DNA from: a virus
Length of the DNA: 64,000 nucleotides
Strand: one strand, 5' to 3'
Virus record (IMG/VR): IMGVR_UViG_3300023199_000051
Location: 32,001 to 96,000 of that record
Positions 11,301-43,259 of the stretch are shown here, piece by piece. Positions within the stretch are counted from its first letter, which is position 1. Each line of letters starts with the position of its first letter. The translations under genes and the position numbers were made by a program. The notes below the pieces were generated by a model. It worked only from the letters and a program-made list of their open reading frames with translations, was not told where the DNA came from and did no database searches.

Positions 11301-12938
11301 GGGGTAGGCGTCTTCCAGCCAGGTGTTCAGGATCTCGCCGGCGCTGCTATGCGGCCCGAGCCCGGCGGTCTGGAGTACCTGCACGATCTCCATGACGGCC
11401 GCGGGGCCCCGCTCGTCCCAGTGCTCCTCGGCGTCAATGTTGGTGGGCATACCCTGTGAGGTGTCTGCACCTGGAAAGTGCTTGCGGATCTCACGCCACA
11501 CCTCATCCATGGGCAGGGCATCCACTGTGACGCGCGTGTCCGAAGGTAGGAAGGCAACGCCGTAGTCCGGGTCTGGCGGGAGCCCGACGTCATCGGTGAG
11601 CGCCTGGAGGATGAACCCGTCCTCCTGGAAGTGCTGCGGCAGGTCGCCCCACCGGATCGTGCGAGATGTTGCAGTGGGCAGCGTCTCGATACCCAGCTCG
11701 CGGAGTAGGGCGTCGTCCTCTGCAGCCTGGGCCTCCACCTTCAAGGCGTGCGCCATACGCATCCAGTGCAGCTCTTCTCCAGACAGCCCCAGCGTTCGCA
11801 ACTCCCCGGCGCTCAGGTCGGTGCCCAGCTCGGGCACGTCGGACCCGGGGGCGTGGCTCACGCCCAGGTCCGTGATGCGCCACTCCCCAGCCGCGTTCCG
11901 CATCACGTTGCCGCCACGGATGTCGTCGGTCCACACCCCGCGCTCAGCGAGCTGTACCAGGGCGCTCCAGAGCAGCCTCACGTTGTCCTCGATGTTGGGG
12001 GCGAAGTAGGCACTCGCCTTGGCAGTGAAGACTTCCACACCCCTACGACTGTGGCGGCCCTCGACAGCTTCGCGTGCGTCGTGCGCCATGCGACGACCGT
12101 GGTTGTCGAGGTAGCGTTCCCCCGATGATGACAAGGGCTCCAAGTGCTCCTGTACGACACCATACAGACGTCTAGGACCCTGGTACACCGATGGAAGCTC
12201 GACCCCCGGCAGTGTGGAAGGGAAGGCGAACACCAGCGGTGCCCGAGCAACGCCCTTGATACCGAGACGTCCAACGAAGGCCCAGGCCGCAGCGTCGGTG
12301 GGATCTCCGGTGATCTTCAACACCCAACCAGGATAGTCAGGCAACGCATAGGCACAGCCGTAGTTGCCGCAGCCGAGCGCCATCGGGTTGTCGTAGCCGA
12401 CGTCGAGGTCGTAGGGCTTACGCTGGAGCATGATCAGGGCGGCGCGCTGCCACTTGTTGAAGTTGTCGCTGCCCCAGTCATGCTTTCCGAGCCCCCGCGA
12501 TTCGGCATAGGTGCGGGGATTGCCCTTTGGAGGGGCGCCACGAACGGGCAGCTCCTCCTGCCTCTTCGCATACCGCTTCAGCTTCGCTGGCTCTGGTGAG
12601 TAGGCCCATGCCGCCAGGGCCAGGTGCCGGCGGGTGGGGCGGCCGTCGTCCTCCCACAGCGGCTCACGGCCCTCCTGAACCTGTGCCATGTGGCGGGCGA
12701 TGAAGGCGTTGCGGCGACTGCGCCAGTGCTGACCGCTGTGACTGTCTTCGGTGAGCTTGTCGGGGTCACCATCAGCGCGGCGGTACGCGGCGATGAAGCC
12801 TCGCTTGCTCCGTGCAACCTTGCTCACTTTGCGATCCTGCATCTGCGGGACCAGGGCTTCGACCATGGTGAGTGGCAGCCATGCACGCTCGCCGGCCGGC
12901 AGCCCCTCGGTCGTCGTTGCGGTGGAGATCAGCTTCAT
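8322..12938 (-). CDS. Polyvalent protein: unknown N-terminal domain, protein-kinase-like, ParB/Srx x3, unknown domain, hemerythrin, SAM-dependent methyltransferase
   Basis: Kinase LGCGNYGC..LKITGD..DDIRGGNVM..ITDLG. ParB motifs FVDGRHRAFAARLLG, WDGWHRSAVAQVYG, HEGRHRAAAAMQLG. Hemerythrin DDHDEI..HFVGEE..QHD..HSQAED. MTase VLDYGSGHGAD..GYDP..ATYVFNTV. Confidence 0.85.
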   Translation of the reverse strand: MKLISTATTTEGLPAGERAWLPLTMVEALVPQMQDRKVSKVARSKRGFIAAYRRADGDPDKLTEDSHSGQHWRSRRNAFIARHMAQVQEGREPLWEDDGRPTRRHLALAAWAYSPEPAKLKRYAKRQEELPVRGAPPKGNPRTYAESRGLGKHDWGSDNFNKWQRAALIMLQRKPYDLDVGYDNPMALGCGNYGCAYALPDYPGWVLKITGDPTDAAAWAFVGRLGIKGVARAPLVFAFPSTLPGVELPSVYQGPRRLYGVVQEHLEPLSSSGERYLDNHGRRMAHDAREAVEGRHSRRGVEVFTAKASAYFAPNIEDNVRLLWSALVQLAERGVWTDDIRGGNVMRNAAGEWRITDLGVSHAPGSDVPELGTDLSAGELRTLGLSGEELHWMRMAHALKVEAQAAEDDALLRELGIETLPTATSRTIRWGDLPQHFQEDGFILQALTDDVGLPPDPDYGVAFLPSDTRVTVDALPMDEVWREIRKHFPGADTSQGMPTNIDAEEHWDERGPAAVMEIVQVLQTAGLGPHSSAGEILNTWLEDAYPLKWEQPAVKLEYDSPYFAREAWRAAGVNMGEAPSMQMPPIIFVDGQFVDGRHRAFAARLLGLRYIPVIQLEQFKSGVEALPAQDVLDSGICFDGRDCLPAAATAVPAAATAQEIEGASERSFDAATVEAAVDEAAPYFEEMREVGGGQRSYAPLHRSAGLPKRRPSGVPNTVWGAVLGAVRGVDGASIPLGTQTQQHLQDGWVVTTEGWGERCLLRGWGGWAEEPPWEAEEGEWGSWLCPTTDESDYLPLAMAEAQIRASVIRPGEPDGAPAGADQWVLDVWVPTDSQEYPFAQVTAWRVHQQASVPIEKLPAGASRAATAQEIEWASAYRYDNPPEADPAEMDWRVERYPVAKLDHLNDWQQWFEEEQWAYEQRGYDPAAMAEAIRRGDIEEIVVIEDPRGQAIGIWDGWHRSAVAQVYGLDTIPAAVGRLKESVEALPSEDPLRYTFISEMAPRLWFKDKPEVVPPQFDYEDRRRNIPIVYDDRNTVHVLLKPTAFLELTSTPLKHLVDILRPDKVAQYTQAMRSGDRFPVPWMQYDRDKKQITSHEGRHRAAAAMQLGLPAVPVVITIRPKFGESHEREWGWGVDLIEESPFVKRVQRGYAQQVKAQQHHPEHHQEYGGPHWVDVQPMGPLTDQTLDDTFSPVRRHNYDVARRAGLSYEDIIGEPVTKLAREQSKMIKDGVPAQQALKQVAAAYKSGHSGVEKCPYVPGSNPVKWLTDDHDEIRGMCAALIRYAEAGDWERVTKCMRALRVDCEQHFVGEEDDVFPMLEQQLGRPGAFDALVAQHDPLLRMLRSVEALAEGGARPVLQIRELTKHLHAHSQAEDQIAQGLGPIERLPAAQTEADLDRSCPTALHRNGSSAPVRWLHERGLIRGPVLDYGSGHGADVEWLRGQRLQVKGYDPCHGPFDLPDTKYNTVLATYVFNTVPKKAQAGLLREIRDRLKPGGAAFITVRSDVKTGRTSRGTYQRKVKLKLPIEGRVSGGVIYRLDG

Positions 12939-12987
12939 AGAGACCAATCTAGCACTGCGGTCCCCAGCGCGCTCGGAGCTACCAGGC

Positions 12988-26323: not shown

Positions 26324-26953
26324 CTAGATGAGGTCGAAGCTGCGGTCGAAGGTCCAGTGCGTACGGAGCTGACAAGTCAGCGTGCCTCCACCCGCATCTA
26401 GGCGGAGTCGCACCTTGTCGAGGACGGGGTCGGTGATCTGCAGGTTGAAGACGCCCGCTGCGCTGATGTTGTTCTGGCGCGTGTTGGTGTCGAGCCAGTC
26501 GGCCGAGCCGTCGTTGAAGCTCGTCACGTCTGCGGTGGCGCCGCTCGTACCGCCGGTGATGGTGTTGCCGACACCGAAGACGAGGCCCGGCGAGACGGTC
26601 GTGATGAACATGGTGCCCGCGCTGTCCGGGGGCCCGGAGACGATGGCTGTGGCACCCGTGGTGCCGTCGGTGATGGTCTCGCCGTCGACGAAGGTGCCAG
26701 AGACGTTGTTGAGGACGAGCAGGGGACCTGCACCCTCCACCGCTGTCTGCACGATGGCATCGAACTGATCACCGAAGCCGTCGACGGGGTGGTCTTCCAC
26801 TTCGAGGACGAAGCCGCCCGCACCGAACCCGCCGAATCCGCGCCCGGTGGCGAACAGCTTCGCGCCAGGCGTGACCTGCGCAGATAGGGCGTCTGCAGCA
26901 GGGATGACGGTGTCTGCTTCTGTCAGCCCTTGGGGCAAGCGATCGAAGGCCAT
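26324..26953 (-). CDS. Beta-sandwich putative structural protein with internal F..GETIT..T.GATA repeat
   Basis: FVDGETITDGTTGATA and FGVGNTITGGTSGATA; AGGAG RBS. Confidence 0.65.
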   Translation of the reverse strand: MAFDRLPQGLTEADTVIPAADALSAQVTPGAKLFATGRGFGGFGAGGFVLEVEDHPVDGFGDQFDAIVQTAVEGAGPLLVLNNVSGTFVDGETITDGTTGATAIVSGPPDSAGTMFITTVSPGLVFGVGNTITGGTSGATADVTSFNDGSADWLDTNTRQNNISAAGVFNLQITDPVLDKVRLRLDAGGGTLTCQLRTHWTFDRSFDLI

Positions 26954-27067: not shown

Positions 27068-28660
27068 TCATAGCGCAGGCACTGCGATGACGAACTGCAC
27101 ACCGAACGGCGCCCCGTCCCGCTCTGGCGTGATGGTGCGGAAGGTACCCGGCTCGGCATCTTCTGGCGCAAACTGCCGGAACCGAAGCTGGTTGACGGTC
27201 TTGTCCACCTTCCCATACCGGAAGTCGTGATCACTGAGCCAGTCCTTCGCCTTTTGGACGGACCACTCCCCGCGGTCGAAGCGGACAGACTGCACCTTGG
27301 TCGAGCCGTAGAAGCGGCCCGTCTCGGGATCCTGGACGCCCCGCTCGACGAGGTCTTCTTCCACCTCGTACGTGGCCAGGTTGTCCGCTGACAGGGTCTC
27401 CACTGATGCGTGCCGACGTCGGCCGCGACGTGCTCCGCGACGGGGTCGAGCGGCTTCATAGAGGTGCGCTGCGACGGCAGCACCCTCGGGGCTGTGGTGC
27501 AGTCTCCCCTTGTACTCGGAGGACCGCCTGCTGCAGACCCCTTGGCGGTCGATGTACTTGGGATCCGGGTTTCCTCGGCTGTGCTCCACCTGGAGGTAGG
27601 TCCCCGTCCGTGTCTTGCTGATGGTGTACCGCCGCCCGTCGGCATCGTACTTCCACTGCTTGAGCAAGCCTCCCTTCCGGGCGCCATAGGAAGGAGCCAC
27701 AGGCTCCCAGCTGCCGAGGCTTCCTACAGACCCGAGGTCGTGGGAGTTGACGACAGCTTCGTGCAGACGCGCTGCGTCCTGATCGCCCTGTTCGAGCGCC
27801 TTCCAGTACACCTCGACCAGCGGCACGTTGCGAGAGCCGCGCTCCCTCTTCGCTGCGTAGGCGAAGGACTTGGCCTCCTGCTCTACGCGCTCGGGTGAGG
27901 AGGCCCCGATGGCCAGCACCCAGGACTGCGCATCCTGCAGGGCCTCCACGAGATTCCCTGATCCCCAGGTCACCGCCTCCTCTCCGTGAGCATTCAGCTT
28001 CTTCGCGAGCTGCTTGGCTGCTCGGTACCCGAGTGCCTCGGATACGATCTGCCCAGTGGGGGAGACGACGATGTACAGGTTGCCATCCTCCTCGACTTGG
28101 TATGGGCCGCCCACACCCCGGACTTCCAGCTTCTCGACGCCAGGCGCGTACTCTGCGTCCTGTGTCGCGATGGCGCCGGCCTCCAGGTAGTCGAAGTCCG
28201 AGTCATCGGGCTCGAAGGCTTGCCAGTCGACCAGCTTCTCTGTGATGTGCGGCTCCTCACCCCGAAGCTCTTGACTTGCCACCGTGAACACATCCGCGAT
28301 CTGCTGCAGCGTCGACGCTGTCCCTTCACGTGCATCCTCTCGCCACCGGTCGACGCGCTGTCCGACGCGCTGCCGGAGAGTAGAATCCTTGGTCCGCAGG
28401 AACTCTGCGTGCCCCGTGCGGCCATAGGCTGCTGCAAGCACTGGACGCATCCGTGCTAGCGTCTCGTACGCTCCTGGCTGCCCCCCGAAGTTGTCTTCGA
28501 GCCATGTGAGAATGCCCTCACATCGATCAGCACCGTACTGCTTGATGCACTGGCGGAGCAGGGACGCTTGCCGATCGGCAGGCATGCGCAGGAAGCGCTT
28601 GCTGTGGATGGTCCTCCAGATGTTGGAGGGTTGGCGCGGGGTGAGGGTGCGCATGCTCAT
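27068..28660 (-). CDS. Multi-module hypothetical protein
   Basis: 530-aa ORF; C-terminal module KVQSVRFD..W..KAKDWL..H..KVDKT..LRFRQF preceded by VETLS. Confidence 0.7.
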   Translation of the reverse strand: MSMRTLTPRQPSNIWRTIHSKRFLRMPADRQASLLRQCIKQYGADRCEGILTWLEDNFGGQPGAYETLARMRPVLAAAYGRTGHAEFLRTKDSTLRQRVGQRVDRWREDAREGTASTLQQIADVFTVASQELRGEEPHITEKLVDWQAFEPDDSDFDYLEAGAIATQDAEYAPGVEKLEVRGVGGPYQVEEDGNLYIVVSPTGQIVSEALGYRAAKQLAKKLNAHGEEAVTWGSGNLVEALQDAQSWVLAIGASSPERVEQEAKSFAYAAKRERGSRNVPLVEVYWKALEQGDQDAARLHEAVVNSHDLGSVGSLGSWEPVAPSYGARKGGLLKQWKYDADGRRYTISKTRTGTYLQVEHSRGNPDPKYIDRQGVCSRRSSEYKGRLHHSPEGAAVAAHLYEAARPRRGARRGRRRHASVETLSADNLATYEVEEDLVERGVQDPETGRFYGSTKVQSVRFDRGEWSVQKAKDWLSDHDFRYGKVDKTVNQLRFRQFAPEDAEPGTFRTITPERDGAPFGVQFVIAVPAL

Positions 28661-28696: not shown

Positions 28697-29773
28697 CTAA
28701 CCGGCATGCAGCACAGGTACGCGCGTGCTTGGTCCCGATGAGAATCCGAGATCGACGTAGACCAGCTCGCGGACGCCCGAGCTGCTCACACGGGCCATGA
28801 CGTTGTCGCTATGACCATCGGTGTACTCGATGCCCAGGTCGTACATGCAGTCGAGGGCCACCACCAGCGATGACACCTCAGTCCCCCCACGCCACGGAAT
28901 CAGGTAGTCGAGGATGCTACTCGGTGCGTCGTCCATGGCCTCCTCAACCAGCTCCTCGTACTCGTCTTGGGTCATGTCTCCACCTTCCACGTCGGCACGG
29001 CTGTCGTCCAGCGCCCACTCATCGACCCAGTCCTTCTCCCGCTTCGTCAGGGGTTCTAGCGGCTCCATGAGGATGGCATACAGCCCGGAGTCACTGAGGC
29101 CGTACACCGCGTAGATATGCACCACTCCCAGGCACTGTCCGGCCTGCATCACGGTGTGCGCATTGGCGGCTTCGGTCGGATCCCCTGTGATCTTGATTAC
29201 GTAGGGACGCCCCGCGAAGACGCACCCAAACATGCCGCACCCCTGCTGCCTCGGATCGAAACGGAAGCCCAGCTCCTGCAGCTCGAACAGGCCTCGCGCC
29301 GCCTTCTTCCTCCACGCCTTCGTCTCGCGCCGCACGGAGCCGGGCGGCTTCCTCTCACGGCCCTGGGGCGGCCTCGACCGGACGGTGCGTGTCTTGAGCT
29401 TCAGGCTCTCCACCTTTCGGCTCTCCATCCAGGCCCGTGCCTTGTCCTTGTGCTCACCCCTGGTGACAGTGGCCGTCACCTTCATAGCGGCCGCCACAGC
29501 TGCGGCGTCGTCGATCTGCCCGACCCCCGCCAGCCAGTCGGGGATGAGGTCGAGGGGCAGCACGACAGCGCCAAGGCCGGTCGCGATGGTTGCACGGGCC
29601 CACAGCGGTGTCTTGGGGTCCATCATCACGTAGTACAGCGCGACCATGTCGACGCCGAAGGGGACCTTGAGTCCTTGCCGCTTGATCCAGGGCCAGAACC
29701 GCTTCTTCACCTTGCGGATCAGCTTGCGGACCTTGCTCCTCTCCTGCGGTGTCATGTCGCGGTCAATGGCCAT
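28697..29773 (-). CDS. DUF1232 (YkvA)-protein kinase fusion
   Basis: YVMMDPKTPLWARA..LPLDLIPDWLAGVGQIDDAA; then QGCGMFGC..IKITGDPTEAA..TDGHSDNVM..YVDLG. Confidence 0.8.
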   Translation of the reverse strand: MAIDRDMTPQERSKVRKLIRKVKKRFWPWIKRQGLKVPFGVDMVALYYVMMDPKTPLWARATIATGLGAVVLPLDLIPDWLAGVGQIDDAAAVAAAMKVTATVTRGEHKDKARAWMESRKVESLKLKTRTVRSRPPQGRERKPPGSVRRETKAWRKKAARGLFELQELGFRFDPRQQGCGMFGCVFAGRPYVIKITGDPTEAANAHTVMQAGQCLGVVHIYAVYGLSDSGLYAILMEPLEPLTKREKDWVDEWALDDSRADVEGGDMTQDEYEELVEEAMDDAPSSILDYLIPWRGGTEVSSLVVALDCMYDLGIEYTDGHSDNVMARVSSSGVRELVYVDLGFSSGPSTRVPVLHAG

Positions 29774-29775
29774 GC

Positions 29776-29994
29776 TCACCCTGCCTGCATCAGCGCGCCC
29801 ATGACGTCCCCCATCTCTGGGAGCCGCCCCTCGCTGTGTACGACCGTGAACAGCTGATCCATCACCGTGTAGGAGGGATCCCCCTCCGTGATGCGGTGCT
29901 CGGTGACCCCTTCTGAAGACTGCAGGAACAGGGCGAGGCAGCCCTGTTCTCTTCGGATCCGTACTGTGACCTCTTGTACCTCTTCCACTCTCAT
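29776..29994 (-). CDS. Small hypothetical protein
   Basis: AAGGGG before ATG 29994; ends 2 nt before the next start. Confidence 0.45.
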   Translation of the reverse strand: MRVEEVQEVTVRIRREQGCLALFLQSSEGVTEHRITEGDPSYTVMDQLFTVVHSEGRLPEMGDVMGALMQAG

Positions 29995-30038
29995 CCCCCT
30001 TGATCCGCCTGCCCGAACCGGGCAGATCTCCGCCCCAT

Positions 30039-33000
30039 TCACAGCCCTTCGAGCTTGCCGACCCGCTTGCACTGGTAGCAACCTGATGCACGCTTGCACC
30101 GCACTCGGTTCCCCGCGTTCACTTGGACCTCGTTCAGCTTCTCACGGTGTCCCTGCTCGCAGGTCGTCCATACGCGAAGGGGCAGCGCTTCGAGTCGCCC
30201 GACATCGGCGCCGGCACTCTTGGACACGCCAAGGTCGATGATCTTCCAGTTGCCCTCGGCGTCCTGCATCACGTTGCCGCCGTGCAGATCGCCCCACTGC
30301 ACACCGACTTCGTTGTGTAGCGCCTCGATGGTCGAGATCACGCGCTTGTACTGCTGGAGCTGATCGCTGTCGAGCATGGCTCGGGCCCAGCCATCCAGGT
30401 TCTCCAGGGCCTCATCCAGCTCGGGATCTTGCCTGTCCCATCCACGGGTGAGGAGGATAGCAGCCAGGGACCCGGCTGCGGATGAGCCCAGGAAGTCCTC
30501 GGCTCTCCAGTCCAGCGGCTTCAGCTTCTGCTGTACGATGGCCCACAGCGGCTCGCCGTCAGGCATGGGAGTCAGCGCGTAGACGCAGTCGATGCGGGCC
30601 AGTGCGGGTAGCTCGGTCCAGTCTTCGTGATCGAGGACCACTTGTGCAGCAGCTGCCTCACTCCAGTCCGTTGTGAGCTTCACGACCTTGTCGGGATCAT
30701 TCGTCAGGTCGTAGACGCAGCCGTAGGTTCCACACCCGAGGTGCTTGTCTCCAAGCGGGTAGCCGTGCTTGGCGAGGATGCTCTTGGCCGCGCGCTCCAG
30801 CCGGGGCCACTGCGCGCGTCGCAGGTAGGCGCTGGTCGACACGACGTCATCCCCATCACCAGAGACGCGGATGCGATCGCCCCCTGCAACGCAGGCTACG
30901 GCACCAGCGGGCAGCCGCTCGATGGCACGCTGTACACCACGCTGCTGCCCCACGCGGTCTTCTGCCTCGCTGAACTTGCGGAAGGTCACCTCAACGGGGC
31001 CTTCGAGCGACCAGTCCCATTCCCAGTCCCGGGTGCCGCTTCCGAAGGCGAAGCCCGTGTCGAAGGTGACGCCGAGCCGGCGCAGCAGCTGCTCGACCTC
31101 GAAGAGGGTGCCCAGCTGCTCGCGGGTGAGGTTGGGCCCGAAGCTGATACCGACATCGACCGGACGTCCACGGTCATCATGTGCGTGACCACGCCCCGAC
31201 TGCTCGGCATCCAGCAGCATCTCGGCGAGCCTGCCCTTGAGCCGCTTCTGTGCACCCCGACGCGCCTTGTGCTCAGTCCTGCCTCGGGCGACCATGTTGC
31301 CGTGCTGGTCATACACCACCGTGTACTTGCGCGTAGCGCCTACGCGGTAGCCTGGCGGTAGTTGCGGCTTCAGAGCGCTCTCGATGGAAGACTGCGGCAC
31401 GCGGAGCGCAGCAACCTGGTCTGTCACGAGCGTCGAAGCGTCGATGACGATCTCACCAGGCCGCGGGTCGACGGGCGGCACCATGCTGGCAAATGGGTAC
31501 GGGCTGCCTTGCGGTGGGAGCACGAACACGAGCTGCTGTTCAGTCTGTGGGTTCATCAGGGCCACGAAACCGCGGGAGTGCGGCGGCGGCTCCACGCGCA
31601 CGTTGAGGAGCTTGAAGCCCACCAGCGGCGGCTTTCGACCCTGCACGCGCTCGATCAAGTCTGACAGGTAGCCCTGCTGTGTCTTCGTGAGCAGATCGAC
31701 AGAGCCAGTCCCTACAGCCGCTCTCATGCGGGGGGTTGGGCTTGTCCCCGATGTCCCTCCGTACTCAGCTTCCAGGTAGTCGAGCCAGCGGTCCGGGAAG
31801 ATGGCCGTTGGGGAGGGGACACTCTTCCTGGGAGCCTTGGGCCGCTGCCGTGCCTTGCTTGTCGCGCCGCCTGGTAGCCCCTCCGCGTAGGCTGCGTACC
31901 TCAGTCGCTTCTTCACAGGCCGTACGACGACACCGACTGCGATGGGAGACGATCGGTGTCGCCAGATCGCATTGAGCGTGCTGGCACGCTTTCGCCACTG
32001 CACTTCGTCCAGCTCCATCCCACCAAAGCCGTGCTCGGCAAGGTGCCGGCTCCACTGGCTGTTGGTGGCGAAGTCGGTGATGAGCTGTGTGACCCACTTC
32101 GTCGCTCCTGGCGGTGCGAGTGCGTCTGCATGAATCCGCTGGAAGCGTGCGGACGTGAGCGATGGCTTGTACTCGCCGGCATCCTCCCCCGGAGCCACTA
32201 CTGCGGCGGGCACGTGATCCAAGACAGGAAGCTGGTAGCCGGAGAGCTGCTTGCGGGCGTCCTGCACGGGGATGAACCCGGCCCAGTCCACCTCGTGCGG
32301 GGAGCGTAGGTTGTCCTCGGAGACCTCATCGGGCAGGTCGAGGCGCGAGGCATCCACCACCCAGTAGGTCACCTTCTTGGAGCCGTCTGCCTTGTAGACT
32401 TCGTAGGGGCCCTTGAACCCTTCCGCTTCCATGTCGAGACCCGCCTCCTCGAAGGTCTCCCGGATGGCGGCCTGCATCGCAGACTCGCTTTCCTCGACGT
32501 GGCCCTTGGGGATGGAGAAGCCCTTGCGCCAGGATCCGCCCGTAGGGTGCACCACCAGGATCTCACCGGGCCGCACGATGGCCAGCCCCGCCGAGTGGAT
32601 GACAGGAGCCGTGCGAGGTAGCTCCCCTCCTTCCTCGAACCGGTGCTTCGCTTCGGTGGCGAGCTTGTACAGAGGCGTGTCGGGGCTGTCGCCGTGCACG
32701 TCCTCCAGGTGGTCCATCCACCGCCCAGCGGCCCTCAGTGCATCCTCCTCGTCTCCGAAGCCAGCTGCGACTTCCTGGGGGATGAAGCTCGGTCCGATGG
32801 CGTAGGCCACCTCGAAGGTGTGGTCGGCGACCTCATACACCACACCCACACGAACGCGGGTGTCGTCCTCGAACACCCAGGCATGCACGACGCTGTCGTC
32901 GTAGGCAGCCGGTTCGAGCTTGCCGCGCCCCTTGTACTGGAAGCTCGGAGACAGCTGGTGGGCAGCGCTCTGGTTGTCCGCTGTCGAGCGATACCCGACG

Positions 33001-36000
33001 CGGTCCTCCTTGATGATCTCCAGCAGGATGCGGAACCAGCGGCTGTCCGAGGCAGGGCGCCCCTCGGCTTCGAGCTGTGCAATGTCGGCTGCGATCTGCG
33101 AGTAGGGCTCACCCTCACCCGCCTTGCCACGCACCCATGTGATCACGTCGCGTGCAATGTCTCCCGAGCTGCGCACCGGCAGGGACTCGGTGAACGAGGC
33201 AGCAGCAGCACGCGCAGCTGGAAGTGGCCGAGCAGTGTGCAGGTTCTCGGTGGCCGGCAGCGCTGGAAGGTTGATGGCCCTTAGTGCCTTGATCAGCTTC
33301 TTTGTGTCACGCTTCTCATCACCCTGCTCGTACTCAACGCGGTCCGACAAGACATCGAGTGTATTGTTGATAGGACCGCTGCTGGAGTAGAGGTAGCGTA
33401 GTGCCTCAGGCGTAAGAGGGATGATCCATCTGCGGTTCCTCTCTTCCGCATCCTCCATCGCTGCGACAAAGGCCTGCTTACCTTTGCTGCTGTGCTCGTG
33501 GAGAGTGTCGACCTCCAGCATAGTCCACTCGTCATAGACGTTGTCTGGCACCTTCAGGGACAGCGGCACCTGGGCTTCGTCGCCGTGCAGCCAGGAATGA
33601 ATCTCTCTGCGGACATCCGCAGAGACCTCCTTGGCACTCCTGTCGTTGTAGGGCACCGACGATGGCTTTCGGCCACGGCCTCCACGCATGACCACCCCGC
33701 CAAACGTGACGCCGCTGCTTTCCAGCCAGATGTCCATGACCGCGCCGTTCTTGAACCGCAGGTAGAGCTGTCGACGGTGCTTGTTCCGCCCGGTGCCCTT
33801 GTAGTTCTGCCGGATGCTCTTGATGCCCAGCCGCTTCTTGTACTTCTTGATCGCCTTCGAGAGCTGTCCCGTGTACTCCGCAGAGCCCACCTTGGTACTG
33901 ACTTTCCCCTGGCTCGGCACCTGCTCAAGTGGCACAATACCGAAGGTCCCCACCCAGTAGCTGCTCGGTGACACATCATAGGCAGCGTTGTCAGGGAGGT
34001 AGGCATTAATGCCGACCCGATGCGCATGGCCCTTCAGCTCAACAGGGGACACCACGATGGCGACCGCCCTGTGTAGCTGTCCGCCATGCCGCAGACCAGG
34101 CTTCACGTTCGCGATGCGCCTGATACCAATTCGGTCAGGCGAACGTGGGACTGCTATGCGGAGCCCCTGGTGGGGCTGGTCGGTGATGGTGTAGGTCCGC
34201 TTTGTCGAGCCGGGGCCTCCTCTGTCTTTCATCTTGAAGGACACCCCTCGAACCAGCTTCTCGTTGGCCTTCTCGAAGGCTGGCGCTGCAGTCGTTGCGG
34301 TTCCGGTGCCCTTGAAGCTGTCGAAGCCATGTGGTAGTGAACCCTGCTCCTCTGAAGCACGGTCAGTGAGCCACTGGACGTAGTCGAGCATGGTCTTGGT
34401 GGTGACGTTGTCATCGTCGTAGAAGGAACCATCCGGCCCCTCCAGCACACGCTGGCCACGCCGTTCCTTCACGCGCCAGCCCTCTGCAACGAGGTCACGG
34501 GCGTGCTGCTTGCGCGTCTTGAAGACGCCGGAGAGCCCGATCTGCTTGTTCAGGATCTTGATGATGCGCCCGCGCTTCATCGGGCTGAACTGGTCTGCAA
34601 ACCCGTCGGTGTCTTCTTCAGCAGCTATCTCGGCGGCTTCCGCTGCCTTTCTTGCTTGCTCTGCTGCCTCTCTGCCCTCTGCCCGCTTGGTGATCGCGTC
34701 GGCTCCCTGCAGCTGGTCCCACAGCTCGGTCAGCGTCCAGACCACCAAGCGCTGCTGCCCCGCATCGACGCCATACACACCTTCTGGCCTGCGGAGGTGA
34801 GGCGGGAAGTCTTTGGCCTCGGCATTGGCCTGCGGGTACCACTGGCTCACACTGTACTCGACGTCCCCACGCTGCCAGCTTGTTCCGACAGGGATCGCAG
34901 GCGGCTCGGGCATGGGGAGCTGCTTCTTGGTCGCTGCAAAGTCTCCTGCAGCTGCCTTGGCGGCATCCTTCGTCGTGAAGTGCACCGAGGAGTCCCCCGT
35001 CGGCCACGCACCCACAGACGGCAGTGTCTTGAGGCCTCCGTCCCGAGTCAGGTAGTGCCGGTTGTCGGGCCCCTCTGGCACCGCCTCGGATGCGAACAGC
35101 ACTCGGACCATGTACACGTTCGAGTTGGCTGCCTTGGCCCAGGCCCGCGCAACCTGAAAGCCGAGTCCGCCTTCTGGCGTGAAGATGACAGCGGTGTCCC
35201 CTCCATGCCAATCAAGCGTCAAGCTTGCCGGTTCGCGCTCCTCGATGAGGTCGAGCACGTTGTACCGTCGAGCCGCTTCGCGCCAGTCCTGCTCGTGCAT
35301 CAGGTACAGAGGCTCCCGCACCTTGTCCTCGACCCAGGTGCCATCATCGCGCTGAAAATCCACTACCCACTTGCGCTTGGGGAAGTCCCCCTCACGCTGG
35401 GTGTCGGGACCGAGACCGCGGAGCCGGTGGGGGAGCTTCTTGGTGCTGTACTCGGTGGGCCCGTACTTCTTCTTCATCTTGAAGGTAGGTGTGACGAGCT
35501 GCTCGGGCGTCAGGTGGGGATCTTCAGCCTCTTCCCCTCCTCCCGGCTCGGGCGGGGGCGGTCCCGCCTCCCAACCGAACAGCGGCCCCCACCCGTGGTC
35601 GATGACCTCCTGCTTCAGTCGGTCTGGCGGGGTCTGCTTCCGCGCCCAGCGCTTGCCGTTCCACCCGTAGCGCATCTTCTTGCCGCTGACGGTGGCGTGG
35701 ATGTTGTGCCAGGTGGCGCGGCGCCCCTTCGCACCTTCGACGACGCGCACCTTGCCGTAGACGGGCGACTCCCAGCTGCTCTCCCGATCACTGGAGCCGC
35801 TTGGTTCGGTGCGAGGCTTCGGCGGTGATGGCTGTCCGTACACGATGGCCTTGACTGTGGTCACTGGGTCAAGGGCATCACGCCAGCGACGCTCCAGGTT
35901 CCCGCCAGGGATGTACAGGGTCAGCGAGGCCGGCATGCGGGTCTCGTCGTAGGTCGGCTCCTCGGTCTGGTGGAGGCCCATGCCCCCCTTACCCATGCCG

Positions 36001-39000
36001 ATGCGGGCCTTGGTCACCTTGAAGCGGTGCACGGTCTCGGCCTTGTACCGCCACAGCAGGGGCACTTCGTCGATCATGACCCGCACTTCCTTCTGGCCGC
36101 GCAGCTTGTCGGGGTACTTCGTGTAGTAGGCGTGTACGGCATCAGCCCACCGCGTGAAGGCGGCCTCGGTTGGCGCCTCCGACTTGAGCACGAGCTGCCC
36201 ACGCCCCAGCTTGCGCTTGCCTGGAGGCACAGCGTGGATGTAGCTGCCTCGGCTCGTGATGGTGATGATCTGCCACCCAGCCTGCACCAAGCCTTGTTCG
36301 AGCAGCACTTCATTGGACAGCTTGTAGCCGTACTCGCCCCGCGGAACCTTCTTCGACGTACTCTTGCCGTAGCTCGACAGCTGTACGGTGACGGGCACGA
36401 GCTTCGGCAGCGGTGGGCGCTCTTCGGTGGAGGGTTCTGCAGCCGGAGGCTCAGGCGGTGGAGGCGGCTCGGGATCAGCAGTCTTCGGCTCCGGAGGCGG
36501 CTCGGGCGTCTCTCCGATCAGCACTCCGCGGTTGTCCTCGAACCACTTGACGACGTGCTGAAGTACCTGCTCCAGGCCCTCCAGCCCCGTCCTGCGCGAG
36601 GTGTACTTCCGGAAGTCCGGCGCGTCCCAGGTGTCGTGGACGACAGCCTGTGCGGTCAGCTTGCCCACTGGATCCGCATCCTTCTTCCACTCCGAGCCCC
36701 GCTTGTCGGACGCCGAGATGTAGATGCGGTAGTTGGGCGCGTTCTCCTTGATCCCTCCGGGGGCCTTCTCACCCCCCCGCAGCCGGAAGAACTGGACGTT
36801 GACGCTCTGTCCACCGAGGATGGAGCGCTTGTAGACCTCCAAGTAGTAGTCCTCGAACAGCGGCTGCAGCTTCGACCGCAAGAACGTCGCTGCTCGATCG
36901 GCTGCGGTCTGCCCGGGCTCCGGGACCAGTGCAGGTCCGTCATCCGGCTCGGCGGCCGGCGACATCAGCTTGCGGAGTGCCATGGCATCGTCGGAGATGC
37001 CAAGCTGGCGCAGCAGGTACTCCTTCCACAGGCGCCCCCAGAGTACGGAGTGCTTCATCGCATGTGTCAGGGCTCCCTTGCGGGTGCTCTCCTGGACCTT
37101 CACCCAGGTCTCGGGATCTGTCCCTTCACGGGTGATACGCGCAATCCAGTAGTTGTAGCGCTTGTCCACACTGGCCTGGAAGGGAGAGGCGTGCGGCGGG
37201 AGCATGTCGTGCGTATTCTTGCGCAGCCACTTGTCCGCCTTCTTCGGCGACCACCGCTTGTCGGGGACCTCGGGGATAGGCAGGGAAGGCACACGGGGCA
37301 ACCCCTCCTTGTCCTTGGTGAGGGGGCCCGTCATGGCCCATTTGTTCGCGAGGAACAGCGCCTGCTTGGCCGTCATGCCCCGCTCGGCCAGCCACCCGGC
37401 GATGAGCATCTTGGGGAAGGTGGACAGGGCCGCATCTACGTCCTGCGCGCGGGGCAGCATGCTGCTCAGGATGGCGCGAACGCCCCTGTATGCTAGTGGG
37501 ATGGCCTGCTTCAGGGTCGCCTCGTCGGGCACGATGCCGTACTGCGACAGCAGGATGGGGGTGGCGGGCCTCGGAGGCTGTGCGGGCTCTGGAGGTGGTA
37601 CGGGCTCCCCCGGCTCCAGCGGCACATCGGGCACACCGAACATGCCCATCTGCCCGGGACCTGGCGGCGGGGGCGGCAGCGCCTCGCAGCCCACACGACC
37701 GCAGATCATGCGGTACTGGGTCCCGACGGCCTCCCAGACACGGCGGCGTGCCTCGGCGATGGCCTCCGGGTCAGGGCCCGCATCAAGCCACTGCCACTCT
37801 GCGGGGCTGCCCCCCTTACCCGAGGTGATGCTTCCCTTGTGCAGCTGATCCATGGCGTCGTCAAGGATCTCCGCGGCCTGTTCTTCGCCCCCTCTCCGTT
37901 CGGCCTCCTCGGCCCGCTCCAGCTCGTCCCACGCCCAAGAGGTCAGGTCCTTGACCAGCTCATCGAGGGTGTCCTTGCGCAGCGACGTGGCCAGATCCTC
38001 TGCGCGCTCGTACGACCTGTCGATGTCAGCTGCGCGGCCCGGTGCGGCGCGTTTGAGATCGTCCGCCAGCTTCTTGTACAGGTACAGCAGATCGGCATAC
38101 GTGACCGGCTCTTCACCAGTCCTCTCCGTGTACTCTGTGTACTCCTTGGCACCATCGAACAGCGCTCCGAGCTGGGCGATGTCAAGCCGATCAACCCCGT
38201 CCGGGTCGTACCCGATGTCCTCCATCAACCCTTCGAGGAACCGGGAGACCTTACCGTCGGCAGCGGGGGCGGACTGCGCTTCGTCGTACAGCGCCTTCGC
38301 GATGGCCCGGCGCCGGTCTTCATGGCCCGCCTCAAAGTAGGACTCTGCTGCGGCGTGCAGGTGCTGTGGACCCTCTGACACCACGTCTATCACGGCATTG
38401 TCAACCTCATCGTCCGCAACCACCAGGAAGCTGTCGAAGGGGTTGACCTGTGCAGCCTGTACGATCTTGCTGTCCAGGAGCAGCTTGGACAGGACGTAGC
38501 GTGCAAGAGGAGTCGTGGCTTCACCAGAGAGTGGCGCCTCTCCTGGGCTGATGTCTCCCACTGCGTACAGCGCATCGACGAAGGACGTGTCGCCCGGAAG
38601 CGTGTCCCAGAAGTCGTAGACGTAGCGGTACTCACCTGGCTGCAGCACACGCTCAACATTGTCGGACCACGGGCCGTGTTCTGTGGCCTCACGGGCTTGC
38701 TCCACGATCTCGCGAGCGCGCGCGGCATCGACCTCGACAGGCTCTGCGGCCCTTGCACCCTGCTGCCACAGCTCCAGCTCGGCGAAGCCTTTGCCTGTGA
38801 AGGGCCCCTCGGGGATGAGGGTGAAGTAATCGCTGTCCAGCGCAATGCGCGTCGAAGCGCCCGTCTTGGTCTGCTGAACAATGAGATGGTCTCCGACCTG
38901 GCGCTTGATCTCGACCTGGTTGCCTTTGTACTGACCGAGGCGTCCGACAAGATCATCGGTCCCCTCTAGGAGAACTTCGGCCAGCGCCTGCTGCCCCTGC

Positions 39001-39116
39001 TCGGTGTGTAGCCACGTCCAGGCCTTCTTCGCGTCAGGCAGCGTGGACTGCACGGAGGCCAGCCAGCTTACGAAGGAAGCGCGGTCTTGCTCGATCGATT
39101 CGGTTAGCTGAGCCAC
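30039..39116 (-). CDS. ~3025-aa polyvalent protein with a NUDIX hydrolase, a C-terminal protein kinase and a terminal Cys motif
   Basis: TAGTG overlap supports a GTG start at 39116. NUDIX box GHVEESESAMQAAIRETFEEAG (domain ~32220-32600). Kinase LGCGTYGC..VKLTTD..GDLHGGNVM..IIDLG. Most N-terminal modules are unrecognised. Confidence 0.85.
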   Translation of the reverse strand: MAQLTESIEQDRASFVSWLASVQSTLPDAKKAWTWLHTEQGQQALAEVLLEGTDDLVGRLGQYKGNQVEIKRQVGDHLIVQQTKTGASTRIALDSDYFTLIPEGPFTGKGFAELELWQQGARAAEPVEVDAARAREIVEQAREATEHGPWSDNVERVLQPGEYRYVYDFWDTLPGDTSFVDALYAVGDISPGEAPLSGEATTPLARYVLSKLLLDSKIVQAAQVNPFDSFLVVADDEVDNAVIDVVSEGPQHLHAAAESYFEAGHEDRRRAIAKALYDEAQSAPAADGKVSRFLEGLMEDIGYDPDGVDRLDIAQLGALFDGAKEYTEYTERTGEEPVTYADLLYLYKKLADDLKRAAPGRAADIDRSYERAEDLATSLRKDTLDELVKDLTSWAWDELERAEEAERRGGEEQAAEILDDAMDQLHKGSITSGKGGSPAEWQWLDAGPDPEAIAEARRRVWEAVGTQYRMICGRVGCEALPPPPPGPGQMGMFGVPDVPLEPGEPVPPPEPAQPPRPATPILLSQYGIVPDEATLKQAIPLAYRGVRAILSSMLPRAQDVDAALSTFPKMLIAGWLAERGMTAKQALFLANKWAMTGPLTKDKEGLPRVPSLPIPEVPDKRWSPKKADKWLRKNTHDMLPPHASPFQASVDKRYNYWIARITREGTDPETWVKVQESTRKGALTHAMKHSVLWGRLWKEYLLRQLGISDDAMALRKLMSPAAEPDDGPALVPEPGQTAADRAATFLRSKLQPLFEDYYLEVYKRSILGGQSVNVQFFRLRGGEKAPGGIKENAPNYRIYISASDKRGSEWKKDADPVGKLTAQAVVHDTWDAPDFRKYTSRRTGLEGLEQVLQHVVKWFEDNRGVLIGETPEPPPEPKTADPEPPPPPEPPAAEPSTEERPPLPKLVPVTVQLSSYGKSTSKKVPRGEYGYKLSNEVLLEQGLVQAGWQIITITSRGSYIHAVPPGKRKLGRGQLVLKSEAPTEAAFTRWADAVHAYYTKYPDKLRGQKEVRVMIDEVPLLWRYKAETVHRFKVTKARIGMGKGGMGLHQTEEPTYDETRMPASLTLYIPGGNLERRWRDALDPVTTVKAIVYGQPSPPKPRTEPSGSSDRESSWESPVYGKVRVVEGAKGRRATWHNIHATVSGKKMRYGWNGKRWARKQTPPDRLKQEVIDHGWGPLFGWEAGPPPPEPGGGEEAEDPHLTPEQLVTPTFKMKKKYGPTEYSTKKLPHRLRGLGPDTQREGDFPKRKWVVDFQRDDGTWVEDKVREPLYLMHEQDWREAARRYNVLDLIEEREPASLTLDWHGGDTAVIFTPEGGLGFQVARAWAKAANSNVYMVRVLFASEAVPEGPDNRHYLTRDGGLKTLPSVGAWPTGDSSVHFTTKDAAKAAAGDFAATKKQLPMPEPPAIPVGTSWQRGDVEYSVSQWYPQANAEAKDFPPHLRRPEGVYGVDAGQQRLVVWTLTELWDQLQGADAITKRAEGREAAEQARKAAEAAEIAAEEDTDGFADQFSPMKRGRIIKILNKQIGLSGVFKTRKQHARDLVAEGWRVKERRGQRVLEGPDGSFYDDDNVTTKTMLDYVQWLTDRASEEQGSLPHGFDSFKGTGTATTAAPAFEKANEKLVRGVSFKMKDRGGPGSTKRTYTITDQPHQGLRIAVPRSPDRIGIRRIANVKPGLRHGGQLHRAVAIVVSPVELKGHAHRVGINAYLPDNAAYDVSPSSYWVGTFGIVPLEQVPSQGKVSTKVGSAEYTGQLSKAIKKYKKRLGIKSIRQNYKGTGRNKHRRQLYLRFKNGAVMDIWLESSGVTFGGVVMRGGRGRKPSSVPYNDRSAKEVSADVRREIHSWLHGDEAQVPLSLKVPDNVYDEWTMLEVDTLHEHSSKGKQAFVAAMEDAEERNRRWIIPLTPEALRYLYSSSGPINNTLDVLSDRVEYEQGDEKRDTKKLIKALRAINLPALPATENLHTARPLPAARAAAASFTESLPVRSSGDIARDVITWVRGKAGEGEPYSQIAADIAQLEAEGRPASDSRWFRILLEIIKEDRVGYRSTADNQSAAHQLSPSFQYKGRGKLEPAAYDDSVVHAWVFEDDTRVRVGVVYEVADHTFEVAYAIGPSFIPQEVAAGFGDEEDALRAAGRWMDHLEDVHGDSPDTPLYKLATEAKHRFEEGGELPRTAPVIHSAGLAIVRPGEILVVHPTGGSWRKGFSIPKGHVEESESAMQAAIRETFEEAGLDMEAEGFKGPYEVYKADGSKKVTYWVVDASRLDLPDEVSEDNLRSPHEVDWAGFIPVQDARKQLSGYQLPVLDHVPAAVVAPGEDAGEYKPSLTSARFQRIHADALAPPGATKWVTQLITDFATNSQWSRHLAEHGFGGMELDEVQWRKRASTLNAIWRHRSSPIAVGVVVRPVKKRLRYAAYAEGLPGGATSKARQRPKAPRKSVPSPTAIFPDRWLDYLEAEYGGTSGTSPTPRMRAAVGTGSVDLLTKTQQGYLSDLIERVQGRKPPLVGFKLLNVRVEPPPHSRGFVALMNPQTEQQLVFVLPPQGSPYPFASMVPPVDPRPGEIVIDASTLVTDQVAALRVPQSSIESALKPQLPPGYRVGATRKYTVVYDQHGNMVARGRTEHKARRGAQKRLKGRLAEMLLDAEQSGRGHAHDDRGRPVDVGISFGPNLTREQLGTLFEVEQLLRRLGVTFDTGFAFGSGTRDWEWDWSLEGPVEVTFRKFSEAEDRVGQQRGVQRAIERLPAGAVACVAGGDRIRVSGDGDDVVSTSAYLRRAQWPRLERAAKSILAKHGYPLGDKHLGCGTYGCVYDLTNDPDKVVKLTTDWSEAAAAQVVLDHEDWTELPALARIDCVYALTPMPDGEPLWAIVQQKLKPLDWRAEDFLGSSAAGSLAAILLTRGWDRQDPELDEALENLDGWARAMLDSDQLQQYKRVISTIEALHNEVGVQWGDLHGGNVMQDAEGNWKIIDLGVSKSAGADVGRLEALPLRVWTTCEQGHREKLNEVQVNAGNRVRCKRASGCYQCKRVGKLEGL

Positions 39117-39649
39117 TACTTCCCCCCGAAGAATGCTGCGTATCCCAGCATCCCCACAACGGCACCTCCGACCAGGAGGGCCCCCATCTTCGCGGTGTCC
39201 CCCTCCCACCATGACGGCTCGTACCCTTCCTCCTCCGCCTGCGGATGCCTCCGCCCGAACAAGGGCCGCTTGTTGCCAAAGAGCTTCAGCTTGGTCTTGC
39301 TCTTCGCCACAGGTGCGAAGTCGTCATTCTCATCGAGCTGCCCGATCAGTACACGCTTGCGTGCTGCGCGGAACCGACGACGCACCTTCGACACCCGAAT
39401 GCCGCGGCGCTCGGCGTCCTCTTCCATGAGCGCATCCAGCTCCCGCGAGCACTGGCCCTCCAGGTCGGGACCTGGGTTCTTGAGCACGTTGGCCATGTCT
39501 TCGAGGTCGTACTCGCCAGGCCGGTTGAGCCCCACGTACTCGACGTACCGATTGCACGCCGAGGGCCGGTGGCTCACCGGTGTGATCTCAGGAGCAAGGG
39601 CGCCGGAGGTAGCGGCGGGATAGTAGGATGGATGGGCAAATGGTTGCAC
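39116..39649 (-). CDS. Hypothetical protein with a C-terminal TM
   Basis: C-terminal MGALLVGGAVVGMLGYAAFF. Start is uncertain (no RBS at 39649). Confidence 0.55.
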   Translation of the reverse strand: MQPFAHPSYYPAATSGALAPEITPVSHRPSACNRYVEYVGLNRPGEYDLEDMANVLKNPGPDLEGQCSRELDALMEEDAERRGIRVSKVRRRFRAARKRVLIGQLDENDDFAPVAKSKTKLKLFGNKRPLFGRRHPQAEEEGYEPSWWEGDTAKMGALLVGGAVVGMLGYAAFFGGK

Positions 39650-42600: not shown

Positions 42601-42734
42601 AGACGTCCGGCGTCGAACAGCTCCGCGTTCAGATGCGCACTGATCCTCGCATGCCCGAGGAGTACCAGAAGATCATCGAGGAGGGCGGGCAGAAGTCCAC
42701 GCTGACACACAAGTTCATCCCCGACCTCCAGTGA
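39663..42734 (+). CDS. GHKL (Hsp90/MORC-like) ATPase fused to an HExxH zincin-like domain and coiled coil
   Basis: VREALQNSSDA, EDNGVGM, LGATGK..GGFGVAK, GTKI; CHEIAH..HNESF; GGAGG RBS. Confidence 0.8.
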   Translation: MAAQDHSRLRRRAPIDMDDAPGDLPERGVVEPLSLADAARTYRALGTLGRKILPYLEQARDVVCTPVGRRTVIKSLDYVCATQAKSRVSRKALRVEPKLVERLATTIERSPCGCGVSPAQQKRAVEYLHALSQTIEPVPIGGGETIYSGEMGVDAAAMWQMMTQDLYGDNDLVALAVREALQNSSDAVNTAQRSRGEHGITPGEGYFAVTWEEDEGGETGTLTFEDNGVGMNQDILINKFLVLGATGKGEDVESVGGFGVAKAVILGVTPTGRWEVHTRDLGAKPIPGSMSYDVYRMPYRQGTKIVCYDVPTKDMYSRVFSAWYAVEQRIKAILAFSDTGRIDLLYNGLPVTTSFPRRRGFHLKYADLDWGDGNEVTVKRYRRTAGTGSGNFYVRLVTGSGVGESSLIQFTEGPGGDTIMKSDIVIDIRTTNRPRDTEYPLNASRDRFKSASSASWAFRQLKETFIRESASADEDREYDTLLPDSSDPKERKGAEQFGAAMRKVMEDDDFKAMYDEVMGVASEFYEEQQEVKQEPDVSKGERQVPVPGEKKPDPYAGWRQVQRAIPKTAEEADTTEGRRKLGEAIEVVLTDIEGGKPGQLVWGDTKDALTSLQAGGSINDWQAKALLDAFDKAPDIQAKDKDQVGTSNVATSMTLSELGKRVSDLVQRNPAVPAYVKEEVKKKASKVNPFGTAGAVKISRQNYDKRKARRFLKKAAKYIPMLVLWDITLRMIAQEGGVQIPFRPGFVLDDTVRGVCASEGEAGSYEFRNYVMVHPDRLKETVKAHKNHPNAIATYLHTVACHEIAHLPRIGQGHNESFVVAREDLAFGTAHLLPAIEKAVVKTLKLDPKPSKALRKKLNAARREGRKQGRDQYRDKVKKLRKQLRELEADAAKDDRDVDKLLDEYEDIRQDRDRLKRIVESRQEATGALVARLNALVDYHDFRAWLKQSGTPFLPEGTSALDFLDWLDQHPRMAADAFLETSGVEQLRVQMRTDPRMPEEYQKIIEEGGQKSTLTHKFIPDLQ

Positions 42735-42752: not shown

Positions 42753-43259
42753 ATGCTGCCCTTCTACAGGGTGATCGTCGCCCCTCGTTTCCTGGGACTG
42801 CTCTCCGAGCTGGCCCCGATCAGCATCGGCAACATCACCATCTGGCCTTTCGTCATCGTCCGCGACTCCATGGGAGAAGTTGAGGAGCGGCATGAAGCCA
42901 TCCACGTCCTCCAGCAGGGAGAGTGTGCCGTGCTGGTTGTCCTGGCTTTGCTCGCCGCAGCTGCCCTGACCACCCCCCTGCTCCTGTTCCTGCTCCCCTT
43001 CCTGCTGCCTGCCGGATGGCCGCTGTACGCGCCGCTGTACTACAGCTCCTACGCCATTGCATGGCTGTGGTACTCGAAGTCATGGAAGACGCGAGCTGCA
43101 GACCTCCAGAACCGCTGGGGCCTACGGCGCAAGCCCAACACCCGCGGCAAGGTGGCCTACCTGTCCATCCCCTTCGAGCAAGAGGCGTATGCCAACGAGG
43201 ACAGCAAGTCCTACCTCGACAAACGCCCCCTGCTTGCCTGGGTGCGATTCTCTGTCTAG
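42753..43259 (+). CDS. Membrane-associated HExxH protein (uncharacterised family)
   Basis: RHEAIHVLQQ, TM stretch, AYLSIPFEQEAYANE..YL..R..AW. Confidence 0.7.
   Translation: MLPFYRVIVAPRFLGLLSELAPISIGNITIWPFVIVRDSMGEVEERHEAIHVLQQGECAVLVVLALLAAAALTTPLLLFLLPFLLPAGWPLYAPLYYSSYAIAWLWYSKSWKTRAADLQNRWGLRRKPNTRGKVAYLSIPFEQEAYANEDSKSYLDKRPLLAWVRFSV

Follow-up and report, generated by a model that had tools for sequence, protein, structure and literature searches.

A recurrent E-x-L-P junction motif in giant polyvalent proteins of an uncultured virus, a candidate proteolytic processing signal

The window analysed here, a stretch of 64,000 nucleotides, comprises bases 32001-96000 of the 178,164-bp IMG/VR virus record IMGVR_UViG_3300023199_000051 (genome G000). 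It carries a gene for a giant protein of 3025 amino acids (aa) in which a short motif, E-x-L-P, occurs six times. As the initial annotation had proposed, the same motif is common to a second giant protein of 1541 aa, encoded about 17 kb away. Both proteins carry it well above the frequency in the rest of the proteome, and it recurs, embedded in a longer constrained context, in polyvalent proteins of related loci from other metagenomes. We propose that E-x-L-P is recognised by a site-specific protease that the virus encodes and that acts in trans, and which would cut the giant proteins into separate enzymes; from the sequence pattern we give this reading about an even chance.

Modules and motif sites of the 3025-aa protein

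The source genome has direct terminal repeats, a CheckV completeness of 100% and a guanine-plus-cytosine (G+C) content of 64%; the virus has a DNA polymerase, helicases and ThyX of its own, besides an integrase and a CRISPR-Cas module. The GTG start of the giant gene overlaps by 1 base the stop of the gene 39116..39649, which encodes a 177-aa tail-anchored protein. The longest open reading frame (ORF), 30039..39212(-), begins at the first ATG, at 39212, and has 3057 aa; residue numbers below are those of this 3057-aa frame, and subtracting 32 gives the 3025-aa form. About 2000 aa of unknown modules come first; C-terminal to them lie, in order, a helical unit, the NUDIX hydrolase, another pair of blocks, the kinase, which is truncated and of polyvalent type, and a tail rich in Cys. 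Polyvalent proteins combine at least two unrelated catalytic or effector domains, and here NUDIX, kinase and a conserved domain at 2670-2756 stand in one chain, in a record with terminal repeats. By its sequence, the product is thus classed among the polyvalent effector proteins; the virus is uncultured, and its 178-kb genome is complete. The features of the gene, in window coordinates, are as follows (numbers beginning with P and L denote individual proteins and loci).

30039..39116 (-): polyvalent protein gene, public gene call, GTG start at 39116, 3025 aa
33189..39116 (-): N-terminal region of about 1975 aa, no recognisable family; holds CEALP, KEGLP and the proline-rich linkers 509-559, 897-941 and 1217-1237
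37674..37688 (-): CEALP (E510), at the start of proline-rich linker 509-559
37296..37310 (-): KEGLP (E636), in a loop deleted from the homologous module of P0003
33177..33191 (-): TESLP (E2009), in low-confidence coil immediately N-terminal to the helical unit 2016-2068
32178..32630 (-): NUDIX hydrolase domain, residues 2195-2345, with intact Nudix box; Pfam score 43.6 bits against a cut-off of 21.1
31872..31886 (-): AEGLP (E2444), in unstructured, low-confidence sequence after the post-NUDIX helices; P0006 has no motif here
30945..31205 (-): small conserved domain, residues 2670-2756, also found as stand-alone proteins of 99-260 aa
30909..30923 (-): IERLP (E2765), N-terminal edge of the kinase module
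30192..30917 (-): protein kinase module, residues 2766-3007, of the polyvalent-protein clade without C-terminal subdomain
30180..30194 (-): LEALP (E3008), whose L and E are the end of the last kinase beta-strand
30042..30179 (-): Cys-rich 46-aa tail ending LEGL-stop (30042-30053), no confident model

The six sites and the LEGL C-terminus, as well as the looser copies VESLK and VETLS reported in two neighbouring proteins, were all found again at the coordinates given here when the sequence was re-checked. Self-BLAST revealed no internal repeats in the giant protein. Its gene is present in four DNA sequencing runs of one study, with no RNA run among the listed holders. DNA and protein searches of phage and plasmid collections returned no near relatives, save a weak methyltransferase match in a Vibrio phage; a kinase scan of 185,579 species genomes met no relative and hence gave no host clue, and viral contigs scanned with a conserved 119-aa neighbour protein as a marker yielded no match.

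The initial annotation held that IERLP and LEALP bracket the kinase exactly, and both the termini of stand-alone homologues and the AlphaFold model agree with it. Stand-alone kinases align end to end with residues 2765-3007, their starts falling only a few residues from IERLP; P0022 (241 aa) does so over its residues 3-232, P0072 starts at IERLH, and members of the family end at, or just N-terminal of, the E in LEALP. The AlphaFold model of residues 2755-3057, made from a 28-sequence alignment (mean predicted local distance difference test score, pLDDT, 82.5), has pLDDT >90 at 2805-3005, a last strand at 3002-3008, values of about 50-60 over ERLP and values <50 after 3015. MAFFT alignments of 1058-aa and 658-aa fragments placed the kinase N-lobes wrongly and were excluded from folding. 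Foldseek matches the model to PknB and other kinases (E about 1e-5), and the Gly-rich loop, catalytic Lys, HxD/N loop and DFG-like Asp are all present on the kinase fold, the invariant or near-invariant alignment columns being G72, G74, K91, D221, N226, D239 and G241. The Pfam Pkinase score of 19.6 is under the cut-off of 31.7; about 20 aa separate the DLG motif from the end of the fold, as in the polyvalent kinase clade described in passages of a survey of polyvalent proteins (PMC5512222). Homologues of the kinase also occur in proteins with ART-PolyVal and hemerythrin.

The position of the motif before the kinase is a recurrent one. All three kinases of this genome have E-x-L-[P/K] about 30 aa upstream, and ERLP is aligned at the pre-kinase position in P0018, P0041, P0079 and P0141. 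A site also follows a domain end in P0079, where DUF5661 stops 2 residues before EDLP. The stand-alone kinases P0027, P0030, P0040 and P0033 carry N-terminal leaders of 20-45 aa that end in V-E-[T/R/A]-L before the kinase, which suggests, by analogy, a resemblance to cleavable targeting leaders.

TESLP and AEGLP flank the NUDIX region, as had been claimed, although what they enclose is larger than one domain: 435 aa (2009-2443), with the NUDIX domain mid-way. The enclosed blocks are the helical unit, an unmodelled stretch, the NUDIX domain and the post-NUDIX helices, and both motifs lie in coil with pLDDT <50. The NUDIX domain itself (pLDDT >90) has about 60 stand-alone homologues and NUDIX matches in the PDB, and the Nudix box (G-x5-E-x7-R-E-U-x-E-E-x-G-U) is readable around residues 2237-2259. 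Segments delimited by the motif hence coincide with a folding unit for the kinase and in part for the NUDIX region, which is multi-block and whose blocks on either side of AEGLP remain adjacent, without motif, in P0006.

The N-terminal 2000 aa are as unrecognisable as the initial annotation described them, with nothing found in Pfam, PHROGs, NCBIfam, PDB sequences or among shorter proteins. The sole module matches, which are weak, come from the 2565-aa protein P0003, and KEGLP lies within a module conserved in this only giant relative. The expectation that segments would also occur as stand-alone proteins was borne out for the NUDIX domain, the 2670-2756 domain and the kinase, and not for the N-terminal part (no shorter homologues of residues 1-2010).

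Enrichment of the motif and its recurrence in relatives

The other motif-bearing proteins of the window considered below are the following.

8322..12947 (-): first polyvalent protein, 1541 aa (kinase, hemerythrin, methyltransferase and others), seven E-x-L-P sites
28697..30091 (-): 464-aa neighbour with DUF1232, VESLK (29399-29413) and a kinase paralogue (28709-29341)
27068..28660 (-): 530-aa neighbour with VETLS (27389-27403) before its last module

It was in the 1541-aa protein, with 7 sites where 0.68 would be expected, that the motif first came to notice, so that its recurrence in the 3025-aa protein amounts to a single planned test. Six sites were observed there and 1.3 expected (shuffle P=0.003), and shuffling inside 20-100-aa windows, which keeps proline-rich patches, gave P=0.0007-0.002. 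Together the two giants have 13 sites in 4598 aa, with about 2 expected, and none of 5000 local-composition shuffles reached 13. The remainder of the genome has 20 sites in 41.5-49.5 thousand residues (Fisher p=1e-6 to 8e-6 against the two giants); in the gene set filtered by G+C at third codon positions (GC3), 13 of the 33 genome sites fall in 8.5% of the residues, which places the two giants 5.9-fold above the rest of the proteome (p=8e-6) and not at its background. Among 48,000 three-residue patterns, E-x-L-P ranks first for the two giants (p about 0.06 after Bonferroni correction). Sites are few or absent in the other large proteins: the DarB-like protein (2517 aa), the DNA polymerase (1653 aa) and a 1023-aa protein have 0, a 1066-aa protein has 1 and a helicase (1662 aa) has 2. 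A C-terminal E-x-L is not significant as a general end signal (2 genes against 0.8 expected). A further pattern, V..LT, is enriched in the giant protein, but its contexts are heterogeneous and it is probably due to chance.

Chance or composition might be invoked for E-x-L-P as well, since Leu-Pro is common at the starts of proline-rich linkers in a genome of 64% G+C and the pattern was picked after it had been seen. The giant protein alone gives P of about 0.002 uncorrected, other triplets outscore E-x-L-P within it, and CEALP and KEGLP do open proline-rich stretches. Three proline-rich linkers (897-941, 1217-1237 and 2564-2586) are nevertheless free of the motif and three of the six sites lie outside proline-rich sequence, so that linker composition does not explain it. 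Together with the local-composition shuffles, the scarcity of sites in the other giant proteins, and the motif-blind replication and constrained flanks described below, this makes chance very unlikely and, in our view, already largely refuted.

An exhaustive profile search with residues 2000-3057 returned 909 relatives. E-x-L-P occurs five times in P0018, four times in P0079 and three times in P0041, all of them multi-domain, and is also present in P0145, P0141, P0010 and P0014. The contigs of the motif-bearing relatives come from four separate sample sets and hold clusters of large proteins punctuated by V-E-R-L/M-x: locus L009 has about nine V-E-R-L/M sites in a 1727-aa protein and four in the adjoining 1426-aa protein, L010 has four E-x-L-P in a 1040-aa NUDIX protein, and L017 has two to three sites apiece in three consecutive large proteins, whereas the small genes beside the polyvalent genes of these loci, which were chosen partly for the motif, have almost none. 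A motif-blind set was therefore formed from metagenome loci fetched by kinase homology alone. In its high-G+C loci E-x-L-P is seen 13 times where 4.1 would be expected (p=3.6e-4); of nine control motifs made by rearranging the three residues, not one was significant, and among the residue-substituted controls D-x-L-P was the most enriched, with a nominal p=0.015. The distant low-G+C loci of this set hold 2 E-x-L-P against 4.0 expected.

Flanking positions that were never searched for are constrained, with V/I at -1 in 19/42 sites, R at +1 in 18/42 and A/V/T at +4 in 28/42, counts that overstate independent events as the 42-site set includes mutually homologous sites. The sites taken together define a junction signal, [VI]-E-[RGA]-L-P-[AVT], that spans about six residues and is lineage-wide; V-E-R-L/M-x variants of it occur, and E-x-L-P is its local form. 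The looser copies in the neighbouring proteins, VESLK and VETLS, fit the V-E-x-L-x form dominant in relatives. In P0012 a kinase is followed by VVEGLS, APVERLS and a C-terminal module, and the module after VETLS resembles those after VERLS in P0012 and ERLM in P0010 over short stretches compared by eye, with no alignment statistic. The codons at the E-x-L-P sites differ (CTG, CTT, TTG and CTA for Leu; CCG, CCC, CCA and CCT for Pro), which indicates selection on the peptide and not on the DNA; a DNA-level junction site was rejected on the same ground.

Relatives replace the Pro of the motif by S, R, T, A or K. These substitutions bear on the idea that [V/I]-E-x-L-P acts co-translationally, in the manner of D-[V/I]-E-x-N-P-G-P 2A peptides, with the ribosome releasing modules and no protease involved. 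The likeness of V-E-x-(N/L)-P is superficial, and the lack of a protease among the search results would suit such a mechanism; the Gly-Pro that 2A needs is absent, and 2A peptides are not known to be functional on bacterial ribosomes. We consider this idea hardly credible.

The relatives are true kin of the virus. Genes downstream of their polyvalent genes match the window at 25131-26953(-): of the four small beta-rich genes there, L001 and L011 have three (209, 119 and 132 aa), in unchanged order, at this downstream position, and the 122-aa gene had no match. L018 shares the polymerase-helicase block. The small beta-rich genes may encode virion proteins. Besides the giant protein itself, the only giant homologue found is P0003, which has four shuffled modules in common with it and no E-x-L-P. 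In a 186-kb viral IMG/VR contig of 52% G+C (L027), seven separate genes for 230-300-aa kinases of the same clade lie within 15 kb, so that by gene layout the kinase module is kept there as single genes and not as a polyprotein.

Candidate processing and its alternatives

Site-specific processing is favoured by a six-residue signal that lies in flexible sequence, at module edges and at leader ends, and is limited to polyvalent proteins of one lineage. The protease would cut the 3025-aa and the 1541-aa protein and probably both neighbour proteins, during virion loading or after host entry. At the least, the NUDIX block (2009-2443) and the kinase (2765-3007) would be set free. One processing system could thus serve several genes about 17 kb apart, as the initial annotation supposed. 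The position of the scissile bond can be envisaged in three ways. A cut after Glu would resemble T4- and phiKZ-type enzymes; a cut before Leu/Met would suit a zinc metalloprotease with a hydrophobic S1' pocket; a cut after Leu/Met would fit the V-E-R-L plus variable next residue of the relatives and the natural LEGL end, and would place Pro at P1' in this genome. In a wider form, which we hold to be tenable at somewhat less than even chance, a code peculiar to the lineage, [V/I]-E-R-L-P-[A/V/T], would be read by an undescribed protease that splits strings of anti-host enzymes and trims the leaders of single-domain cargo, in viruses whose capsid, portal, terminase and maturation-protease families all escape detection.

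Several observations weigh against processing. A six-frame search of the complete genome found no Peptidase_S78, Peptidase_S77, ClpP or MPTase-PolyVal, and Pfam scans of about 210 ORFs (genes called by GC3) found no peptidase except a VanY-like lysin. Packaging of the giant protein in the virion is only putative, as capsid, portal and terminase families were undetected: six-frame and ORF Pfam searches gave no HK97 capsid, Phage_portal, Terminase_6N, TerL_ATPase or FtsK. Within the giant protein alone, E-x-L-P is not significant when corrected for all 48,000 three-residue patterns. The motif was described as domain punctuation, and this holds in part: it sits at module edges and brackets the kinase exactly, but it does not mark every junction, and the 1373 aa of residues 636-2008 have no E-x-L-P despite two linkers that are strongly rich in proline (897-941 and 1217-1237) and several shorter ones. 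The loops that contain KEGLP and AEGLP are variable, and the blocks on either side of them are still adjacent, and motif-free, in P0003 and P0006. The pre-kinase ERLP and the L-E-x-hydrophobic at the kinase C-terminus are features of the family, the latter also of distant low-G+C multi-kinase proteins, and part of the motif signal is, judged from these alignments, shared ancestry. Pro directly after Leu is a poor P1' residue for most proteases. Finally, we infer the cleavage, the bond and the enzyme from a sequence pattern, and only DNA runs hold the sequence.

In a different explanation, the junction element is selected and never cut. It would serve as a linker cap, or as a docking site for a packaging, scaffolding or chaperone partner, and would move with shuffled modules while the giant remains one chain. 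Modules are indeed reshuffled among relatives. The motif also coincides with gene ends: MHHIERCP opens P0141 and IERLH opens P0072, while P0041 closes with TIERH and the giant protein with LEGL. Such gene ends are expected of a boundary marker without cutting, and no protease was found in this genome. Against this, a six-residue signal that is sequence-specific, flexible and surface-exposed and occurs up to nine times in one protein is what protease sites typically look like, whereas a passive linker would rarely have this form. Codon use at the sites is not conserved, the motif lacks the length to direct recombination, and the motif-ended leaders of single-domain kinases suggest removal. We regard an uncleaved element as possible, though rather doubtful.

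A third explanation keeps the cleavage and assigns it to a host protease acting after delivery into the cell. It would account for the lack of a detectable viral protease family, and for the limitation of the motif to one high-G+C lineage, possibly one host group. The 185,579 species genomes yielded no relatives, and dependence on a host enzyme would allow the host a simple escape; every step beyond the motif is the same as with a viral enzyme. A host protease is, in our estimation, improbable.

The giant protein itself has no HExxH, no peptidase family match, no recognised C80-like domain and very few Cys outside the kinase and the tail. The candidate proteases of the genome, none of them linked to the motif, are a transglutaminase-like Cys-peptidase lead of 316 aa and four HExxH proteins; in window numbering, 42753..43259(+) and 122895..123404(+) are among the candidate genes. 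The C-terminal half of the 316-aa protein (L004:3124-4071(-); 65121-66071 in window numbering) is like viral transglutaminase-like cysteine peptidases, with a language-model score of 0.92-0.94 and a structural template-modelling (TM) score of 0.4-0.8; its gene sits in an operon of uncharacterised, possibly structural genes. Two of the HExxH proteins, a 1023-aa GHKL-HExxH protein and a 168-aa membrane protein, directly adjoin the giant gene. The atlas search with the HExxH region of the 1023-aa neighbour gave no informative match, and no family was assigned to it. Its gene (39663-42734(+)), divergent beside the giant gene, and L007:7363-8985(+), beside the CRISPR-Cas module, are paralogues with a GHKL ATPase head and a C-terminal HExxH. 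Downstream of the VanY/M15-like lysin with a peptidoglycan-binding tail (L002:3254-4078(+)) comes a 206-aa protein (L002:4476-5093(+)) that is membrane-anchored and bears a metzincin signature, HELGHALGFGH; in L009 and L001, homologues of the two are found immediately upstream of polyvalent genes rich in the motif. This metzincin-like protein was considered as the motif protease and set aside: it is membrane-anchored, it stands beside the VanY-like lysin and its own TESLP is not conserved, and it is more likely a lysis gene.

Neighbouring genes, known systems and biological meaning

Some other large genes of this virus deserve mention. The DarB-like 2517-aa methyltransferase-SNF2 helicase (49436-56989(-)), which has no E-x-L-P, contains an intein with a LAGLIDADG endonuclease at about residues 928-1354. 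Its N-terminus (56800-56989) and that of the giant protein (38930-39116, both (-)) look alike by eye, sharing the pattern F..F/I..WL.... The 1653-aa DNA polymerase gene (L006:6490-11448(+); 102490-107451 in window numbering) matches a LAGLIDADG homing endonuclease and intein-bearing proteins, which suggests that it holds one or two inteins. The 1662-aa helicase (111284-116272(+) in the same numbering) ends in a proline-rich linker and then SSEGLPVTGVP-stop, with the motif 9 residues from the C-terminus.

The proposed cutting has counterparts in several known systems. In MARTX toxins, the effector modules are separated by an internal cysteine protease domain that cleaves on the C-terminal side of Leu, at sites that consist of Leu plus a small residue and have no conserved V-E-R. 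The string of effector enzymes with short Leu-containing linker sites is alike, and the working principle would be the same if cleavage follows Leu. MARTX toxins are, however, secreted bacterial toxins, whereas the giant protein is a candidate virus cargo with no recognised C80-like domain and very few Cys outside the kinase and the tail.

Among phages, T4 gp21 cuts at L/I-x-E and phiKZ gp175 is likewise a prohead protease. The head cargo of SPN3US is processed at a short motif, gp245 cutting after A-X-E (PMC10052503). These prohead-protease systems resemble the present case in that several cargo proteins of a single large phage share a short motif in which Glu is invariant, and in that N-terminal leaders end at the motif. 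Most prohead cuts, in contrast, take off an N-terminal propeptide, and they do not split a string of enzymes; the enzymes are recognisable as S77/S78-type and encoded beside HK97-type capsid genes, none of which is detectable here; and the constraint in the present motif reaches past the Glu (R-L-P-A/V). The Dar system of phage P1 (DarB, DdrB, DarA), in which giant anti-defence proteins are carried in the capsid, may be similar, and passages of PMC5512222 describe DdrB and DarA as proteolytically processed. A DarB-like methylase-helicase is encoded 10 kb away from the giant gene as well, but it is free of E-x-L-P and no P1-type head genes were found.

The closest comparison is with the polyvalent proteins surveyed by Iyer, Burroughs, Anand, de Souza and Aravind (2017, PMC5512222), for which passages of the survey propose release of domains by proteolysis. 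Many unrelated enzymatic domains in one giant viral chain, the same kinase clade and, in the relatives found here, ART-PolyVal and hemerythrin are shared features. The embedded peptidases named in these passages are MPTase (in about 36% of members, typical and not obligatory), assemblin-like and LonC; here an embedded peptidase and MPTase-PolyVal were undetected, and a defined six-residue junction signal is present, while no junction motif or code is described in the passages of the survey that were searched. A defined junction code common to several genes and to their relatives thus appears, from its sequence, to be new.

Defined cleavage sites are scarce for polyvalent proteins, and a conserved, lineage-wide signal makes the proposed post-delivery cutting directly testable. 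The motif is also a means, requiring nothing but sequence, to divide the approximately 2000 unknown residues of the giant protein, and its relatives, into candidate effector units. The enzyme that reads the signal may itself be new, as the genome shows no usual structural or protease family. If the proposed processing is true, polyvalent proteins would be true polyproteins with a readable cleavage map.

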